The notes under the pieces are model-generated. The model did no database searches and was not told where the DNA came from. It saw only the letters and a program-made list of their open reading frames with translations. A program made the translations under genes and the position numbers. A stretch of 63,856 nt of DNA, filler included, from Aduncisulcus paluster (Eukaryota), in NCBI GenBank assembly GCA_024181965.1. It is 27 parts of 27 records of this genome, joined end to end, with 100 filler letters (N's around TTAATTAATTAA, not from the genome) between each part and the next. Parts side by side here need not be neighbours in the genome. Positions count along the whole stretch, not along the records: positions 5,546 to 7,148 come from BQXS01000204.1; 26 more parts are not named here. One strand, written 5' to 3'. Position 1 is the stretch's first letter, and the number at the start of each line of letters is the position of its first letter. This document shows, one piece after another, positions 2,268-53,381 of the stretch.

Positions 2268-2876
2268 GCTCAAAAACTACGCAAAGTCACAGGCTTCATC
2301 ATGCCACAGCAGGTGCTGTCGGTGGAATGACGCTCAAGATAAGAACCTTCTAACAATCTATGATTATTCTTTCCAGTTTATTGTTGATTTTGTTCTTGGT
2401 ATCTATATCAAAAAAATACCCGATGGTGACCTGTAAATCAATTCGAAATTTATGCTAAGGTTTATGGGCAGCCTTAACCTCGCCCGCAAGCTTTCATGTT
2501 AGATAATTGACTGGTTCGATCTATTCGATATCCGAGAGGCAGGTCCTTTTCTCTCGGTTTTTTGGTTGGCATACAATATGCAAATTCTAACAGAAAAGTC
2601 ACTGTGAAAATTAGCTTGTCTCAATAGGCGGCTTTTTTGCAAGTAAATGAGTTGTCAGTCCTTTCTTCTTGCACAAAGAGGGGAAAGATTGTAGCTTGAG
2701 TGTTATGCTATTTATTGACAAATAATGGAATTGTTTGGTGATTTTGATGTGAAAATGTATTCTCACGTAGTGAGAGATGGTTCGCAAAAAATTGTTGCTC
2801 AACTGTCTACTCAACAAAGAATCAGCAAGCTTGGAAATCTGTAACTCTGCCACTGTATGCATTATCTTAATCCAAA

Positions 2877-3578
2877 ATGAAGTCAGCTATACATCAACCG
2901 GAATTTCTACCCTGGATGGGGTATTTTTATAAAATGGCTCTTGCTGACGTTTACGTCATTCTTGATCACGTCCAGTTCAAAAAGAGGTATTTTGAGAACA
3001 GAAATAAGATTTTGACTTCCACAGGCAAGGCTCGGTGGTTAAGTGTGCCGGTATTATCCAAGGGGAAATATTTGCAGGCCATAAATGAGGTCGAAATAGA
3101 TGACTCACGCTCCTGGCGGAAAAAGTTTCTTGAGACAATCCGTCATTCCTACCACCAGACATCATTTTTCAGCTCTCTTTTTGCCAAGATTGAGGCTATC
3201 CTCCAGGGATTTGATAATCCTCGGCTCATTGATCTTAATATGGCATTTATCCATATGATTAGAAATGAGTTGGAGATAACAACTCCGTTGGTTTATTCAT
3301 CGGAAATATTAAATCCTCCACTTGAAACAGCACCTAAAGCGTCTGACCTTATACTCGAGCTTTGTTTAAAAGTCGGAGCAAGCCAATACATCTGCGGTCC
3401 TTTCGGGTGCCGGTATCTCACTTTGGATGATTTTGATAGGAATGGAATAAATATTGAGTGGCTTACTTATGATCCGCCACAATATAAACAACATGTTCCG
3501 GGGTTTATGTCTCATTTGTCCACTCTGGATGCACTGTTCAACCATGGACCGGCGGTCCGCAAACTAATGGTAGGGTAA
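2877..3578 (+). CDS. WbqC family protein (bacterial)
   Basis: N-terminal AIHQPEFLPWMGYFYK...DHVQF...NRNKI; C-terminal YxQ...F..HLSTLDALFNHG; both are WbqC signatures. Confidence 0.92.
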   Translation: MKSAIHQPEFLPWMGYFYKMALADVYVILDHVQFKKRYFENRNKILTSTGKARWLSVPVLSKGKYLQAINEVEIDDSRSWRKKFLETIRHSYHQTSFFSSLFAKIEAILQGFDNPRLIDLNMAFIHMIRNELEITTPLVYSSEILNPPLETAPKASDLILELCLKVGASQYICGPFGCRYLTLDDFDRNGINIEWLTYDPPQYKQHVPGFMSHLSTLDALFNHGPAVRKLMVG

Positions 3579-3579
3579 C

Positions 3580-3874
3580 ATGGCTTACTACATTTTGGGA
3601 CTGAATGACTCAAATTCTGCAGCAGCCATCATGCGTGATGGAGAATTAGTGGCTGCTGCTAGGCAGGAACGTTTTGACCGGATTAAATTTTCTGACCAGT
3701 TTCCTCTTGATGCAGTCTCGTACTGCCTTGGAGAAGCGGATATCGATATTAAACAGGTTGATCAGGTTGTCTTTGCATGGAACCCTGGGCACGAGTTGGA
3801 ACCGCAATTCTCGCCTCGGGCCCAAAGAGAGCATAGAAAATTTCTGCACTATGTGCCCAACCAGCTTTTAAGGC
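3580..3874 (+). CDS. Carbamoyltransferase (NodU/CmcH/TobZ family) N-terminus, bacterial, partial
   Basis: YILG...SAAAIMRDGELVAAARQERFDRIK...FP.DAVSYCL.EA; starts 1 nt after the WbqC stop, operon-like. Confidence 0.88.
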
Positions 3875-5181: not shown

Positions 5182-6109
5182 TCTATCAGATGGAGTGGTT
5201 TGTCTTGTCTAGCAATGGAGAAATCGTGTTTATTTGCCAATGGGATGTTCATTCGTGCAGTATCAGTGTTTCATTCGAGTGTGTTATATTGATGCCACTA
5301 ATAACTACAAACTTAATCATCTAAATAATTCTTTTGGAAATGGTGTCAATGGTTACTTGATATTTCTATACATTCTTTTCAATAAAAGTAACGTTTTCAG
5401 CATTGTAACATTACATTCACCCTTAATTTCGACAGTTTCATCCCGNNNNNNNNNNNNNNNNNNNNNNNNNNNNNNNNNNNNNNNNNNNNTTAATTAATTA
5501 ANNNNNNNNNNNNNNNNNNNNNNNNNNNNNNNNNNNNNNNNNNNNATGTGTCATCGATATGGCCATGCACCCAAGCAGAACATTCTTCAATATCACTCAA
5601 TGATCTGAATTTGTCATATATATTTGCAAATGAATATTCAATAATCTTTTGGAGAGAAAAATATATCCCTTCGGTTATTCCACCATATACATTTGGCAAC
5701 AATTTAGTAACATAAGGGATTATGCTCTCAGCTTGGCATGTTACAGAATTCGCAGAAAGAGTAGGAATAAATGTCCTTCTAAGGATGAAACAGATGTCTT
5801 TTGGGGTCTCTTGAACAAGACAGACCTCTTATGGCTTCCTGTACAAGCCGAACTTTCTCAAAATAACGTAATTCTCGACTGATATGGGTACAAGCAGAAA
5901 TGTTACTCCTGGTTCTAGTAGTACTTGTAACGGATGTCAATGTAAGCGGTTCATCAGCCCCAGCTCCAAAATCATCTTCCATTAATGGGAGAGTTGTGTC
6001 TATAGAGGTATGGCTGCTATCGATAAGAGCCCGACACTGAGCAACCATACTATTTTCAATGGTGTTTGCCTGAAACTCTTTGATCTTACAGAGAGTCATT
6101 TCAGGGTCC

Positions 6110-6199
6110 TGTTATCTTCTATGAAGACTTGGATCAAATTTATTAAAAATAAACGGTTGTCGATCGGAGTTCTAAAAATAGACCAATGAGAATCTCACA
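6110..6199 (-). mobile_element. Putative short (~90 bp) 3' LTR
   Basis: Minus strand reads TGTGAGA...AATAAA...GATAACA, directly after the purine tract GGGGGAAG (6200-6207) and downstream of a chromodomain ORF. The far (CA) boundary is inferred. Confidence 0.6.
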
Positions 6200-6256
6200 C
6201 TTCCCCCAGAACTGCGATCACGGCAGAGAGTACAATCATTCGGAATGGGATAAAAT

Positions 6257-6329
6257 TGCGAGGATAGGGATTTGAACCCCGACTCATGGTTTATGAGCCA
6301 AAAGACAAAACCAGTTGAGCCATTTCTTT
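6257..6329 (-). ncRNA. tRNA-Met(CAT)-derived Pol III cassette in retrotransposon 3' UTR
   Basis: A box TGGCTCAACTGG, CTCATAA loop, B box GGTTCAAATCC and downstream T4. Acceptor and D stems are not paired. Confidence 0.7.
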
Positions 6330-6812
6330 GGTTAAGAAATTCTGTGGCCGACTGATCTTTGCAAATTTTCCGGCTTGTGTTCCCTTCCATATTCGTTTTT
6401 CTCTGCACCTGTTATTTTGTTTACAACTCTTTTTTACAAATTTATACGCTTATCCTTCTTGTATTATTTTGGTTTAATTATAACTATTTTCTTAGAGCGG
6501 ATCATCTTGTACTGATCGATTGTATCCTATCTTCCGCTCTAGTGACCGTACGTTGATTCTAACATCATTTTTAGCGTCTCCTCAACGTTATCGTTTTTAA
6601 ATGTAACTTTTTATCTTACTTTCCACCACTTCATTTTTTTTGATGATTTCTGCTTCCTGTATCTCCCTGGTTTCCTGCGTTCATCCGAATTCGTCTTGAA
6701 AATATATTACTACTCCTTGATCTCTTCCCCCATATTAAAGCATATCCTCCAGTTTCAGTGTCACTATTTTCTTGACTTGATCATTGTTGATTTCTACACT
6801 TTTGCTTTAATA

Positions 6813-7146
6813 TCACCTTAATTTGACAGACTTTTCGGCCAGACGCCTCCTCAACGTGGGATTCCTTATCAAATAACCAGTCATTTGTTCTTCTAACCCT
6901 CTCACTTCGTCCCATGACAAGTAAGCGTTCTCCTCGAAGTTTTTCCATTTAATTTTAAACGAGATAGGCGTTTTCTTACCTCCTCGATGCGAAATGATTC
7001 GCTCTACTTCCCACTCATCTGAGTCTCGGCACTGAACCGATAGTAGCTCCTCCTCCTTTTCTCTCAGTATCACCTTCCTGGTTCTTTCCGTTCCCACCGT
7101 TTTTACATTGTGGTTCGCCAGATTTGAAATTTTAACTCTCCATGGG
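6813..7146 (-). mobile_element. Ty3/Gypsy integrase C-terminal chromodomain (partial)
   Basis: EWEVERIISHR...FKIKWKNFE..AYLSWDEV; frame is open to the contig edge. Confidence 0.85.
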
Positions 7147-7725
7147 CTNNNNNNNNNNNNNNNNNNNNNNNNNNNNNNNNNNNNNNNNNNNNTTAATTAA
7201 TTAANNNNNNNNNNNNNNNNNNNNNNNNNNNNNNNNNNNNNNNNNNNNCCAAATATTGTGCTTTCAAACGACGAACGCATGAACCTCGCAAAGCTCGTGT
7301 GCGACAGAATTTCAAACTAGAAACTGGAAGTATCCAATATATAATATAATAAAAATATCAAAAATAAATAAAATGAATAAAATGCTGTGCAAAAATAATT
7401 TAAGCATGAAATATCCTTACTTCTGTCCACACATCACACTGAAGCTGAAAGAACAGCACTTTTCGTTACAACTACGAGAGAATCTTTTGTGTTCGACCCG
7501 CTATTTCAGTATGTTTCCCCGATTCATGAAAAATATTTCTGTTGCTTTTCCTTTCGTTCTTTTTCATTTATTATTATTCTCTTTGTTATTCCTCACCATC
7601 CTTCTATTTGCATTCCTAGTCTGCTGGTCAATCGCATCTTCATCATTCATTCGTTCGTAATTTGTACACTCTAAGACTATTTCTATCTTCCATTGGTTGG
7701 TTGGTTGTTTCTTCCGTTTTCTACA

Positions 7726-23764: not shown

Positions 23765-23893
23765 TGTTATTGTTGCAAACAATGAGTTAATTAAGAAGTT
23801 TGATTGATAATGCTACGAAAGCAGATAAATTTATCTGAAACGGCCGGGGATCGTCGTAGTAATAAAAACTTACACCTTTTGGTGACCCAAATT

Positions 23894-23924
23894 TACTTTC
23901 ATCGGGGATTTAAACCCGGTATCG
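23894..23924 (-). promoter_or_regulatory. Putative primer-binding site complementary to the element's own tRNA-like RNA
   Basis: Minus strand CGATACCGGGTTTAAATCCCCGATGAAAGTA versus plus strand 24243-24272 CGACACCGGGTTTCGAACCCGAGGAAAGTA. Confidence 0.7.
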
Positions 23925-23951
23925 GATCAGGGCAATTATTCGTTTGCCTGA

Positions 23952-24218
23952 TGTTTATAACGACGAAATAAAAGATATAACAAAATATAAAATAGATAAT
24001 ACTACTAGTATAATAGTATTATAAAAATCATTAGAAAAATAAAATAAATGTTCGTGAGAGAGATTCACAAGATTGATCTCTTTTGCTCACGCTACAAGCG
24101 CAGACAAATTTATTTAAGAACAAACACACGAACCGAAACTCCTAAAAATAGATCTCTGAGAATAATGAATAAAGTAAAATAAATAATAAAAATATGATAT
24201 AATATAAGGTATATTACA
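23952..24218 (-). mobile_element. LTR (~267 bp)
   Basis: Minus strand TGTAATATA...TTATAAACA, preceded by PPT AAAAGGGGCAGGA (24219-24231). The 3' end TTATAAACA is shared with the LTR at 61298. Confidence 0.8.
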
Positions 24219-24240
24219 TCCTGCCCCTTTTAGAAAAAGA

Positions 24241-24312
24241 AGCGACACCGGGTTTCGAACCCGAGGAAAGTATTTCACAAGACAGATGCTCTACCAATTG
24301 AACCAAAATTGA
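24241..24312 (-). ncRNA. tRNA-derived (Thr-TGT-like) Pol III cassette next to the PPT
   Basis: A box TGGTTCAATTGG, D stem GTTC/GAGC, T arm TCGGG-TTCGAAA-CCCGG and T5 terminator. Acceptor and anticodon stems are unpaired. Confidence 0.75.
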
Positions 24313-32091: not shown

Positions 32092-32173
32092 AGCTTACAG
32101 TACCTTACTTTCCCGAGTCGTCACCGACCTCAGTACTGATAAGGCCCGCGCTTGCTTAACTTGTCGATTCGAA
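32092..32173 (-). pseudogene. 5S rRNA, 5'-truncated copy
   Basis: Minus strand AAGTTAAGCAAGCGCGGGCCTTATCAGTACTGAGGTCGGTGACGACTCGGGAAAGTAAGGTACTGTAAGC followed by TTTTT matches the 3' two-thirds of eukaryotic 5S. The 5' ~40 nt are absent. Confidence 0.85.
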
Positions 32174-32183
32174 TAGTCCAGAA

Positions 32184-32190
<7 letters not shown>

Positions 32191-43738: not shown

Positions 43739-45280
43739 GGAAAAACAGCGATACAATCTGTTTTTATGGGTATATTCCCCAGAAAATAGTACTTTAATTA
43801 CTCTTGATTTTGTTTTATCCAATCTAAATACAATCATTATCGGATGTTATATACAAAAATGCTTTTTTTTGAGATCTGCTTCTATTGTAAAGCTATCGGA
43901 ATATTAAAATTGGTTAATAGTTCAAAATACGATAAAATCGAAGAATTTTTATTAATGATGCATCTATTTATGCCATAGGATGAAAGAGCTACTCTCCGAA
44001 GGAATCGGTGTCATAAGAATTGTATTGTATGAAATCGCACAAATCAGCATCAATGTGATGTAATACGTTGAAACAAACAATTATATGATTGCCACGCAAA
44101 GTAATCCCATTCACAGCCAAAAGTGTCAGTGTTGTTTGTGACCGTGATATGAGGAGGGTGTTGTTGTCAATAACACCATAACATAAGTATTGAATAGAAT
44201 TTCATTGTATTGACTGTCTTTTGTTTTTTTTCATCTGTTTTGAGAGAGAAACGTAGAAACTTTAAGAAACACTCCTAACCCGAAATCCCCTTGTCTGAGT
44301 CTATTATTGACAATTAATTTCCCAAATAAATCATGTCGAGATACCCCAATCAACACCAATGTGAGCGATCATTGTCTTGTTGTAATCCAACGATTTTGGC
44401 AAAATCTCATTTTACACCGCCTTGCAAGCCATAAAATAGTATCTTGATGGAAGTTGTCTTATTAATATACATTCATGGTACTATTCTGATGATAAATTTC
44501 GGTTGAACCCTTGCTCTGCCAGTGTCAATCATTTCAAACCAATCATCTGCAATCCGAACAGAAAATCAATCTGATCGATTTTGAATCGTCAACNNNNNNN
44601 NNNNNNNNNNNNNNNNNNNNNNNNNNNNNNNNNNNNNTTAATTAATTAANNNNNNNNNNNNNNNNNNNNNNNNNNNNNNNNNNNNNNNNNNNNCATAGAC
44701 AAACAAGACATGTAAGACGGTCGAAATAGACAAGCACCGTACATATTGTATGATTTGGAGCAATTCAAAACGGATTGAAACAAGAAGAAAGTAGAACAGA
44801 TGGATTCATAGAGGATAGGAAGGTAGTTCATCCAAAAGGACCATCCTAACAAGGAATGCCAGCTAATTGAACCAGAAAAATAGCAAAAAGAAGACAGAAG
44901 CCCATGATAAAAATATTTCCGTATTTCCTCAGATAATATGACAAAACAAAACAAATACAGTCGGAAATACCATGGAAAGTCGATATACCTTCGGGAAATA
45001 CAAAAAGAATCGGAAGAATATGATTAAACGACGAAGAAACGACGGCGGAAAGAATCGAGAAAATATGGGTTTTCGAAAGAAAATACAATCGAAGATGAGT
45101 TGGGAAAGGTATAATAATAGCTTAAAAATATCATAGGAAGGAAGAAAAATTAGCAAGCCGAAGGAAAAAGAGCAAATTTCACAAAAATTATAAGAACAAG
45201 AAATATCAGAAGTAAGAACACGATAAATGTTTCTGAAATATATATAAATCATATATTTATAAATTATAATGGTAAAAAAT

Positions 45281-45925
45281 TGTTAAGAATAGAGTGAAAA
45301 AATCAAATTTCAAAATAATACAAAACGAAAGGAAAATTCAGAATAATAATAATGATTAAAGAAGTGCAAAAAGAAATAATTGAATTTTAACCCGTTAAAA
45401 TGTTCAAGAAATACATCTATTAGTGAATTACCAATGGGAAAGCAATTCTAGAACGATATAGGAATAATGGAAGTGATATAAGAAACAAAAAAGCACCCTA
45501 AACCATAATTTTAATAATATTAAAAGAGAATATCATAAAAAGAAATCAAAAATAACCAAATACGGGAAATTTTGAAAAACGACCAGGTTGCCGACGGAAA
45601 CTCGCCGGCTGACCGGTTGGGAGGAGGAAGGGATGCTGTTGGTTTAATAACCTTTATAATGATGGTGGAGCAAATTTACTAGTTTGAGAATAAAAGAATG
45701 CGCGAAGAAAGGTAAAATATAGTCTGTAAAGAAACACAAAAACTTTCAAATATGATCTTCGGTAATAGGATGGTAATAAACATTCTAATATCGAAATAAA
45801 TATATTAATTAAAATCGTATTATAAAATATGTATTAAATATTCAATAATAATACTCCTTAAAGAAAATAATAAAAACGTCTGCTTTTGGCAACAGCCGTG
45901 TTATTCTAACACTGCCCCTCCTTTC
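45281..45925 (-). mobile_element. PPT and 3' LTR of a chromodomain retrotransposon
   Basis: PPT GAAAGGAGGGGCAG (45912-45925), then TGTTAGAATA at 45911. A candidate inverted end TGTTAAGAATA lies at 45281; this far end is uncertain. Confidence 0.6.
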
Positions 45926-45964
45926 AAAGGGATTAACAATAAATAATGCGGATGTTCCAAAACG

Positions 45965-46408
45965 TTATTTCTTCTTCCTGCCTCTTTTCTTGGAAGGACG
46001 TTCCCCACTCTGAATCACCGCAGAAAAGATTTCGGGGTGTTGTAATAAGTAAATTTCAAATGGAATCAGCTCCAATACGTCTTTTAACGTGAGCCATTGT
46101 TCAGAGTCATCCATGTAATGGGCCAACACCTCCAGCTTCTTTCCGACGAATCGGTGGTCAGAAATCAGAGTAATGGGCCAGGCTACTGTGTCAGCAGACC
46201 TGCAGGCTTTTAAGTCGTCCAAAGTATGGCTTCCTAGAACGTGGAACATGTTGGAGTGTGGGACAGAAAACGTCTCCTTATTCAATAAATCTTTCACCTT
46301 GTATTTGTATCTTGATACGACCTCTGCAATTTGGAAAGGACCGAGGAGCATTGGTTGGAGACCTCGACCAGCAGACTGGTTCTTGATCCAGACAAAGTCA
46401 TCCATCTT
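45965..46408 (-). mobile_element. Ty3/Gypsy integrase C-terminus (GPF/Y motif plus degenerate chromodomain)
   Basis: LQPMLLGPFQI...YKV; WPITLISDHR...LEVLAHY...EQWL. Confidence 0.85.
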
Positions 46409-51525: not shown

Positions 51526-51962
51526 CCTGCTAATTCTTCACTCAGGGGAGGAGTATCGCCATTTCTGCCGTGGGAGTATACATCGACGCGTAACGGCTGG
51601 GTTGGAATTGTGCATCTTCTAACTATGTATCGAAAAGCAGCATTAGGTAGGGTTGTAGTGTGGAGAGGGAATTGGTGATTTACAGTTCGCAACACATAGC
51701 ATGCTCCTGGTTTGATATTTGTTATTCTCATCGTCATAATTCTTTCTCTCTTTTGTTGATTTGTCAATGATCTCCAATCAGCTGGTAATTCTGAGACATG
51801 TCCTCCATGTAGGAATGGCCGGATCTTTTCAAAGATTTTCTCCTTTAACATCCCCCAAGAATCTATTCCTTCAACAAAATAATCTCCGAGTCTAGTAGAG
51901 GACCTACTGGCACTTTTTTCCTTTGAACTTATAACAAAATGAATGGTTACTGACTCTTCCAT
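51526..51962 (-). CDS. Hypothetical protein (3' partial)
   Basis: ATG after AT-rich DNA; open to the contig edge. Confidence 0.55.
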
Positions 51963-52544
51963 GATCGTTGATGAGAATATGGTTATCCAAAATAAACTAA
52001 AAGTATCACTGATAGTATCATGGAAAGAAAGACAATAAATAATTTGTTTGATTTTTTAAAATACAAAGATTGCATAATATAATATTTTTTTTTCTATTAA
52101 AGCATTGTTTTATATAATATATAAGCATTTATGATAAGATTAATATTTCCAATGAAATAAGATGAAAAAATTACATACGAATAATAAGATTAGAATTTTG
52201 ACAAAGGGTATTGAAAAATGAAAATTTATTTAAAATTAAAAAATTTATTTTTGAAAATAGAAATTTTCGATGAAAACTGCTCTATTGTTAATTTAAAATA
52301 AAATTCTTTAGGGCTAGCAAGTTTATTAAATAATTGATTCGAGATCAATCCTATCAATACTACAAGTATATATAATAATATTGTTAATGTTTTGGATTAT
52401 AAGGGATTTAACTTATTTGATTGAAAGAACTAAAAATAATTAATAACGTTAGGCAAAAACAAACTTTTTTGAAAATCTTGCGGGGGAGTGAAACCCTAAT
52501 TAACTAAAATTCGCGGTGAATTCAAATTAACCTATGGTTAATTC

Positions 52545-52576
52545 GGTATAAACTCTAAAAACACTTCCGTCCCTCC
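52545..52576 (-). mobile_element. PPT / LTR junction
   Basis: Minus strand GGAGGGACGGAAG followed by TGTTTTTAGAG (LTR start at 52563), downstream of the chromodomain ORF. Confidence 0.6.
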
Positions 52577-52928
52577 AACGAATGTTTCTTTACCAATCAG
52601 TGGTTAAAACGTTGAAATGTGATTTATATTCGTCAATATACCTAATAAAAACAATATATTCTTCTTAATTAGAGATGAAATTCTTGGTATTTTCGCTAAT
52701 TTTCAAGGAAAAAATGAATATTCCTAAAAAGCTGTAAAAGCTTTTCTACACACCGTAAAACGCTGGTTGTGGCATTTAAATTATATTTTAACTATTTTTC
52801 CATAATTTTTTCACATTTCTTTCTTAATTTTCAAGCAAAAACAGGAATTTGATATATATCTAATTTTACTATCCTAAACCGTGGACAGCGTATGATGAAT
52901 GTTTGTTTAAACTTTAATGCAACATCTC

Positions 52929-53279
52929 TTATTCAAAATTGACCTCTTTGTCCAGGAACTTCTTTCTTAGTTTCGGGTGTTCCGACAAATATTTCTCGAA
53001 CGCCTCTAATTCTTTTATCTCCGAGTAATCTTGCCATGAATCATCTTCCTTTCCAAAATTCTTCCATCTTATCCTGAACTTGATGGGTTTTTTGTTGCCA
53101 AATTTGTGTCGGATGATTTCGTCAACTAAAAATTCTTCCTCATCCTTTCCTGCGGCTTTTATGAGGTCTTCTTCTGAAGCACTTCCTTTGATAAACTTTT
53201 TTAACCTTTTGAATGGGCATAAAAACTCTTCTTCTGAATCCAGAGGTGATAATAAATATCTGAAACTATTAACTCTATC
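52929..53279 (-). mobile_element. Ty3/Gypsy integrase chromodomain (partial; missing from the ORF track)
   Basis: Manual translation: ...DEEEFLVDEIIRHKFGNKKPIKFRIRWKNFGKEDDSWQDYSEIKELEAFEKYLSEHPKLRKK...FE*. Confidence 0.88.
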
Positions 53280-53381
53280 TANNNNNNNNNNNNNNNNNNN
53301 NNNNNNNNNNNNNNNNNNNNNNNNNTTAATTAATTAANNNNNNNNNNNNNNNNNNNNNNNNNNNNNNNNNNNNNNNNNNNN

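Follow-up and report, generated by a model that had tools for sequence, protein, structure and literature searches.

tRNA-gene-like Pol III units near the 3' LTR of coding Ty3/gypsy retrotransposons in Aduncisulcus paluster

Helenus/TRIMp3 is the closest described system to the elements considered here; statements on this and the other published systems refer to the portions of the cited papers that were available. Helenus keeps tRNA-derived A and B boxes, has lost tRNA function and shows no complementarity between the unit and the primer-binding site (PBS), as is the case here (PMC10886601). Its defining trait, conservation confined to boxes A and B without pairing to the element's own PBS, is also found in the present units. 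Helenus elements are, however, non-autonomous and 311-1263 bp long, whereas those described here are coding gag-pol elements of 5.3-6.5 kb (L045, L046); they carry the unit in both LTRs as a presumed promoter, whereas here it is usually found outside the LTR, can face either way and has its own T-run; and they have a tRNA-complementary PBS, where a palindrome occupies the PBS slot here (PMC10886601). A Helenus-like unit inside the LTR occurs in five families of this genome and in the metagenome relative L204, but the unit at 6252..6329 is not of this kind. The studied element lies outside Helenus/TRIMp3.

Other systems share single features. Cassandra TRIMs also have an internal Pol III promoter in an LTR element, but theirs is 5S-derived, sits in the LTR and serves to transcribe the element (PMC10886601); the present unit runs straight into a terminator, and antisense units cannot transcribe the genome. 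Extra-TFIIIC sites, tDNA barriers and the isolated B boxes hit by TRE5-A are Pol III boxes without a tRNA product that are exposed by insertions, likewise here; sites of that type are host loci, whereas the present unit rides autonomous retrotransposons and keeps an A box and a terminator (PMC3159450). Skipper-2 elements of dictyostelids are LTR elements found 7-136 bp downstream of tRNA genes, and a group of LTRs starting TGTGGCA behaves alike in this genome, though not the element in the window (PMC5006619). By this analogy the TGTGGCA group amounts to Skipper-2-like behaviour in a fornicate as regards insertion site. In fungi, GalEa copia elements have a Conserved Hairpin Site, a palindrome including the last base of the LTR in place of the PBS, as here; GalEa is copia, whereas the present elements are Ty3/gypsy, with palindromes of 12-14 nt and the gag ATG within ~25 nt (PMC5445492). 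The available part of that paper reports no tRNA-like unit for GalEa (PMC5445492).

The literature found describes the Pol III units of LTR elements as promoters that serve short, non-coding TRIMs. For autonomous LTR elements, a search that was short on subscription journals and Repbase turned up no description of a 3' UTR unit of this kind. A unit kept by about 23 coding families, lying outside the LTR and facing either way, would represent a different retrotransposon use of the Pol III machinery, and it bears on how elements with LTRs of 76-90 bp distinguish their two ends. The unit survey across families and the targeting result are new here.

The element end and its unit

The window, the whole stretch of 63,856 nucleotides that was analysed, consists of 27 short contigs of Aduncisulcus paluster joined by N spacers; we take this species to be a free-living fornicate (a flagellate lineage). 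The studied element end lies within window positions 5546-7148, that is BQXS01000204.1 (G000:C204), on the minus strand. Bacterial-type, CCA-encoding tRNA genes are present in the assembly, which may include other organisms, and these genes were left out of the host tRNA set; two adjoining ORFs at window 2268-3874 are presumably bacterial in look. Genome-wide counts rest on the loci examined and on the matches listed (100 of 170; 100 of 162), with 63 of 1712 candidates scored.

An earlier note on this DNA had proposed the order chromodomain, 3' UTR, tRNA-like cassette, polypurine tract (PPT) and LTR, and every component was located on the minus strand:

6813..7148, minus strand: chromodomain-bearing 3' end of a Ty3/gypsy pol ORF (Pfam Chromo); the contig stops upstream
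6210..6812, minus strand: 3' UTR, ~600 nt
6525..6576, minus strand: short motif common to the 3' UTRs of several other families
6252..6329, minus strand: Pol III unit like a tRNA gene, in the element's sense orientation; acceptor stem gone, tRNA spacing retained
6311..6322, minus strand: A box
6286..6302, minus strand: segment like the anticodon arm of host initiator-type tRNA-Met, 14/17 nt
6265..6281, minus strand: T-arm with B box, 4/5 stem pairs
6252..6255, minus strand: T4, where host tRNA genes carry their terminator
6200..6209, minus strand: PPT
6110..6199, minus strand: 90-bp 3' LTR, TG..CA, with identical copies elsewhere in the genome
6172..6181, minus strand: near-palindromic CTA(W)4TAG box, present in most listed LTRs of the group

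The features of a Ty3/gypsy LTR retrotransposon are present: TG..CA LTRs, a PPT and a 5-bp target duplication, with the order protease, RT, RNase H, integrase and chromodomain found in the complete relative L046. The Pfam Chromo match on the ORF end (E=2e-5) scores 24.9 bits against a cut-off of 25.1, and on the integrase tree this ORF end is sister to the L014/L099 integrase with support 100/100. The source record of a related, complete polyprotein names it a Tf2-like protein of Aduncisulcus paluster. Three more identical copies of the 90-bp LTR occur in the genome, two solo LTRs, both bounded by 5-bp target duplications, and one 5' LTR (L004/L048). The window holds the chromodomain end only; the cognate 5' end (L004) encodes gag, zinc knuckle and protease. 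No contig spans both, and the link between them is the identical LTR alone.

The unit ends 58 nt ahead of the LTR, and the spacer from T4 to PPT measures ~42 nt, close to the ~45 nt between cassette and PPT that had been claimed. It is single-copy in the assembly: a genome search returned no second copy and thus no SINE-like dispersal. In multi-copy families the unit is always at one fixed place in the element, unlike a dispersed tRNA-derived SINE. Contigs of one run (its type guessed) span the LTR and its flank, not the unit, and are neutral on expression. The ~50-nt motif at 6525-6576 recurs in L014, L102, L115, L130 and L143, among families with and without a unit; read as a small ORF it has no start codon, and this reading was rejected. 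The CTA(W)4TAG box, which we take to resemble a MEF2/MADS site, occurs 15 times in the window versus 2.7 in shuffles, at sites in LTRs and in intergenic DNA.

The promoter boxes of the unit are as strong as those of host genes. With a matrix built from 21 host tRNA genes, its A+B score is 34.3 bits, against 26.9-40.6 for the host genes themselves. The only other strong match in the window is at 24305 (27.9 bits), followed by a next best of 15.1; the best score in 40 shuffled windows was 22.4 bits, and 0/40 reached 27.9. ARAGORN called no gene and Rfam no tRNA on the window, while a relaxed ARAGORN search returned noise only. Spacing and T-run accompany the two boxes, but the stems of a functional tRNA gene (7-bp acceptor, D and 5-bp anticodon) are lacking: the acceptor stem, already described as unpaired, forms 2/7 pairs and the D stem 2/4, against 4/5 in the T-stem.

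The description of the cassette as Met(CAT)-like holds for the anticodon arm, which matches the initiator-type tRNA-Met L323 at 14/17 nt, but not over the full length, where tRNA-Trp and tRNA-Thr score equally. The arm match was equalled by 18 of 20,000 shuffles (~0.02 after correction for 24 units), and this is the only one of 24 units tested with a clear isotype trace. A hairpin that would sequester the anticodon (GGCTCAT-AAACC-ATGAGTC) can form as suggested, but the minimum-energy fold instead pairs the A box with the 3' strand of that hairpin (-19.2 kcal/mol, z -1.86, equalled by 9/200 shuffles). Internal T4 runs, raised as a caveat because they could terminate Pol III, are present but not decisive, since 5/40 host tRNA genes have one.

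Recurrence and retained features among families

The window contains one further unit of this kind, with a repeat close by:

24230..24312, minus strand: first unit of this kind in the window, ahead of another family's PPT and LTR
23850..24096, minus strand: unrelated repeat within that family's LTR, bearing a mistaken complementary leader

The earlier note placed the two cassettes in the same slot of two chromodomain elements; the position before PPT and LTR is borne out, but no chromodomain ORF was seen in the contig of the first cassette. The complementary "leader" of that cassette was rejected, being part of the nested repeat that cut into the LTR; this type of repeat is also present in three other flanks, and the true 5' ends of the family and of its sister are a palindrome followed by ATG.

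Recurrence goes further than the two cassettes from which a recurrent design had been argued, while a fixed slot does not hold, given antisense and LTR-internal placements and many families without a unit. Among the loci examined there are about 23 unit-bearing families, 11 sense and 7 antisense in the 3' UTR and 5 within the LTR:

Sense in the 3' UTR: L001, L006, L014, L015, L141, L142, L144, L277, L354, L357, L115 (PPT displaced by an insertion in L115)
Antisense in the 3' UTR: L023, L045, L046, L091, L095, L112, L140
Inside the LTR: L048, L123, L063, L118, L353

Further A+B units of unassigned context are found in L050, L104 and L355. LTR-internal placement was considered for the L050 and L115 units and rejected, as both precede an inserted element. 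A+B units were also seen in the repeats L104, L105, L144:1068, L355 and L356, one of them preceding long, structured, GC-richer sequence. Of the A+B matches listed (100 of 162), 45 are such units and not tRNA genes; for annotation, A+B matches in this genome may be element units rather than tRNA genes.

The distribution is patchy. Among 49 integrase ends examined, 12 of the 22 that could be classified lack a unit. L012 and L013 have the LTR of L006 and its final 44 nt, with no unit within the 320-449 nt examined; in both, the 3' region is distinct and has an antisense reading frame that follows a CTA(W)4TAG box. On the integrase tree the sisters L001/L099 agree (sense), as do L045/L095 (antisense), while L115/L103 and L140/L123 disagree, L103 lacking the unit that its sister L115 has. 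The tree comprises 39 rows, with two fragments of <100 aa excluded, 14/36 inner branches open and six rows under half filled; it settles shallow groups only, and no order of gain and loss is therefore claimed. Two of 80 metagenome relatives carry a non-coding unit, L204 within the LTR (38.0 bits) and L251 in sense in the 3' UTR (25.2 bits, without T4); other metagenome matches >20 bits are coding or leader sequence, and the 3' UTR is short in many of these contigs. Two other integrase ends were seen in the window, both on the minus strand: one at 44694-46408 has its PPT 46 nt past the stop and no unit, and one at 51526-53281 has a 3' UTR broken by stacked LTR-like repeats.

The units keep the layout of a tRNA gene and lose its fold. 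Acceptor pairs average 2.8/7 in 24 units, where non-cognate chance gives 2.7 and 22 host genes 6.8. The spacer from A box to T-stem is 27-30 nt in 19/24 units, and T4 lies <=6 nt from the discriminator position in 16/24, versus 19/22 host genes. The two outer T-stem pairs form at 0.50 and 0.79, versus 0.36 and 0.52 in non-cognate combinations. Identity to the best host tRNA is 0.49-0.65, and core identity across families is 0.5-0.68 outside close pairs; between the sister elements L001 and L014, UTR similarity is limited to short patches, the A box among them. Central hairpins reach p<0.05 in 7/24 units (host 3/22), the families being non-independent, and are retained between the related families L048/L123, L023/L045 and L144/L277. 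Because the units were found via their boxes, box conservation is partly built in. Boxes, spacer, T-run and partial T-stem form the pattern of a promoter-terminator unit with some RNA constraint.

Position is held more loosely. Sense units end 22-69 nt ahead of the LTR in 9/10 families and 207 nt ahead in one; for the 7 families with antisense units, the distance between the LTR and the start of the unit is 78-266 nt. The CTA(W)4TAG box is missing in 4/4 LTRs with an internal unit and present in at least 13/14 LTRs with a UTR unit (one LTR incomplete), and several LTRs lack both box and unit.

Palindromic leaders and targeted insertions

The 90-bp LTR led to the element's 5' end (L004/L048), where the LTR is followed by 22 nt and then the gag ATG. 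A leader segment complementary to the cassette had been predicted at this place, and the prediction failed: the predicted segment matches <=7 nt on the element strand. The L004 junction is instead a 14-nt palindrome, CAATATTAATATTG, taking in the CA of the LTR. Palindromes of 12-16 nt across the 5' LTR end replace the PBS in these elements, with a sequence that varies by family, and in 5' ends taken without filter they occur in 10/10 that bear gag (9 perfect, 1 imperfect). The complete two-LTR copies L045 and L046 have LTRs of 76-79 bp.

Palindromic 5' ends, genome: L004, L045, L046, L051-L054, L058, L060, L064, L091, L274, L279
Palindromic 5' ends, metagenome: L204, L225, L244, L251, L253

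A unit whose Pol III RNA anneals to its own leader and primes minus-strand synthesis would be a self-encoded primer. These elements do lack a tRNA-complementary PBS, the longest match being 5-7 nt to 23 host tRNA 3'-extended sequences (an incomplete host set), and the studied unit resembles an initiator tRNA arm. However, complementarity in 12 cognate pairs of unit and 5' end was no higher than in non-cognate pairs: the cognate duplex ranked 2-12 of 12 and first in none, and the longest perfect complement was 6-8 nt in cognate versus 7-9 nt in non-cognate pairs (the set includes L204 and leaves out L048, and its 5' ends were chosen partly by the palindrome). Complementarity of >=10 nt between an element's own RNA and its PBS region was not found, families without a unit have palindromic leaders too, and the sole apparent positive is the nested insertion at 23850..24096. 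With the L004 leader, the 12 cognate pairs and the nested repeat all against it, the primer role was rejected as highly improbable.

The TGTGGCA group offers a view of the units from outside. Its 25 matches among the loci examined represent 24 sites. At 12 of these the LTR follows a host tRNA gene by 18-233 nt, mostly by 18-55 nt, and both orientations occur. These genes are of about seven types (Asn, Glu, Gly, Ile, Lys, Phe, Ser and Tyr are named), and the loci concerned (L133, L176, L288-L316) are sometimes stacked. At five of the 24 sites the insertion is 25-52 nt past a non-canonical unit, namely those of L050, L115, the L063 type and the L141 and L142 families, the last two assigned by 40-nt flank identity; four of the five units are element-borne. 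The remaining 7/24 are one-sided or unassigned. An A+B unit is nearby at 14/22 LTR starts of this group without a PPT, versus 0/29 in box-LTR families (Fisher p=2.5e-7; the control is 35 rows minus 6 PPT-bearing 3' LTRs, and up to 4 of the 29 are perhaps not LTR starts). No TGTGGCA insertion was seen adjoining the unit at 6252..6329, and the complete copy in L115 (P0099) gave no Pfam Chromo match.

In Dictyostelium, tRNA targeting depends on a working B box and has served as evidence of occupancy by TFIIIC/TFIIIB (PMC3159450). By analogy, the TGTGGCA insertions beside the units suggest that in vivo the units pass for tRNA genes, although the targeting element could read B-box DNA itself. The targeting family might thus serve as a ready in vivo read-out of occupied units. 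That the units exist for this purpose, as landing pads that draw tRNA-targeting elements to a harmless spot or build nested arrays, seems most improbable: 5/17 assigned targeted insertions do adjoin units, but such insertions part UTR from PPT and disrupt the element that carries the unit, as in the L115 and L141 cases, and no benefit is shown. Two targeted insertions, L298 and L299, lie in alike flanks; at L299 a B box lacking a clear A box is ~25 nt away. In L025, an element of the L023 family ends at the tail of an L141-type unit, that is, inserted right behind the T-arm.

Possible roles of the unit

The units are real, recurrent and probably functional, and there is a strong likelihood that they are bound and under selection. 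What they do is graded lower. There is an even chance that the unit is a tRNA-derived type-2 Pol III promoter with terminator, kept as a tRNA-gene mimic with a local job at the 3' end of the element. Boxes, spacing and terminator position are retained while the tRNA fold is gone, the unit serves whichever way it faces and at three kinds of position, and a tRNA-gene-targeting element takes such units as targets. A DNA-level platform fits best because conservation is orientation-free, position-tolerant, box-centred and next to the 3' LTR. TFIIIC, TFIIIB and Pol III would assemble on the unit, which would yield a short RNA of 70-90 nt; the local job, the least certain step, might be a chromatin barrier or a transcription roadblock beside the 3' LTR. 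Such a roadblock would halt antisense transcripts that start within the very short LTR at its near-palindromic box, a box that may fire both ways, Giardia-like; alternatively, the unit would keep the element's end open. An LTR-internal unit may instead stand in for the CTA(W)4TAG box. Precedents exist for tDNA barrier activity (PMC3159450), for TFIIIB as a Pol II roadblock (PMC5052057) and for bidirectional promoters in Giardia (PMC1885649).

Several observations count against a platform of this kind. Yeast TFIIIB blocks Pol II arriving from upstream of a tRNA gene, with no read-through seen in the available part of that study (PMC5052057), so sense placements would hinder the genomic RNA, which must pass. 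RNA-level constraint, in the hairpin and outer T-stem, is more than a purely DNA-level role requires. The 12/22 integrase ends, L103 and L012/L013 do without a unit.

The main rival is a small-RNA role; the passenger and primer readings are weaker. Some DNA viruses have small Pol III RNAs, and the unit might likewise be a gene for a trans-acting RNA, comprising central hairpin and T-arm, that serves as a silencing decoy or as a cofactor of packaging or reverse transcription. The terminator at the tRNA position, the hairpins, unrelated in sequence yet retained within pairs of related families, and the indifference to orientation and place would all suit it, but no common sequence or fold runs across families, the hairpin is weak in 17/24 units including the studied one, and a constant location at the 3' end is needless for action in trans; this role appears rather unlikely. 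That the units are neutral passengers, tRNA genes or fragments repeatedly captured by recombination and now decaying, is less probable again. On the integrase tree, the patchy occurrence and the changes of orientation point that way, as do the remaining likeness of the studied unit to the initiator tRNA-Met arm and a geometry of unit, 20-70 nt and LTR that looks like insertion downstream of a tRNA gene. With the acceptor stem down at chance level, however, decay would also have hit boxes, spacing and terminator; 23/24 units lack a clear host anticodon arm, units stay within the LTR or the final 270 nt, and they still serve as insertion targets.

Returning to the unit as a tRNA-gene mimic, a broader account can be offered tentatively, as possible rather than probable: autonomous gypsy elements may repeatedly have domesticated tRNA genes as a movable Pol III-recruiting module that insulates or silences the 3' LTR or makes a small RNA, and that is in turn parasitised by a tRNA-targeting family.

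Two other Pol III-type sequences were noted along the way. A 5S rRNA-like match at window 32092-32185 (minus strand; 29.1 bits, under the Rfam cut-off) has T-runs on both sides and is probably a divergent host 5S gene. At L358:968 (plus strand), a tRNA-like gene with TCA within a 6-7 bp anticodon arm and odd spacing may be the host selenocysteine tRNA.
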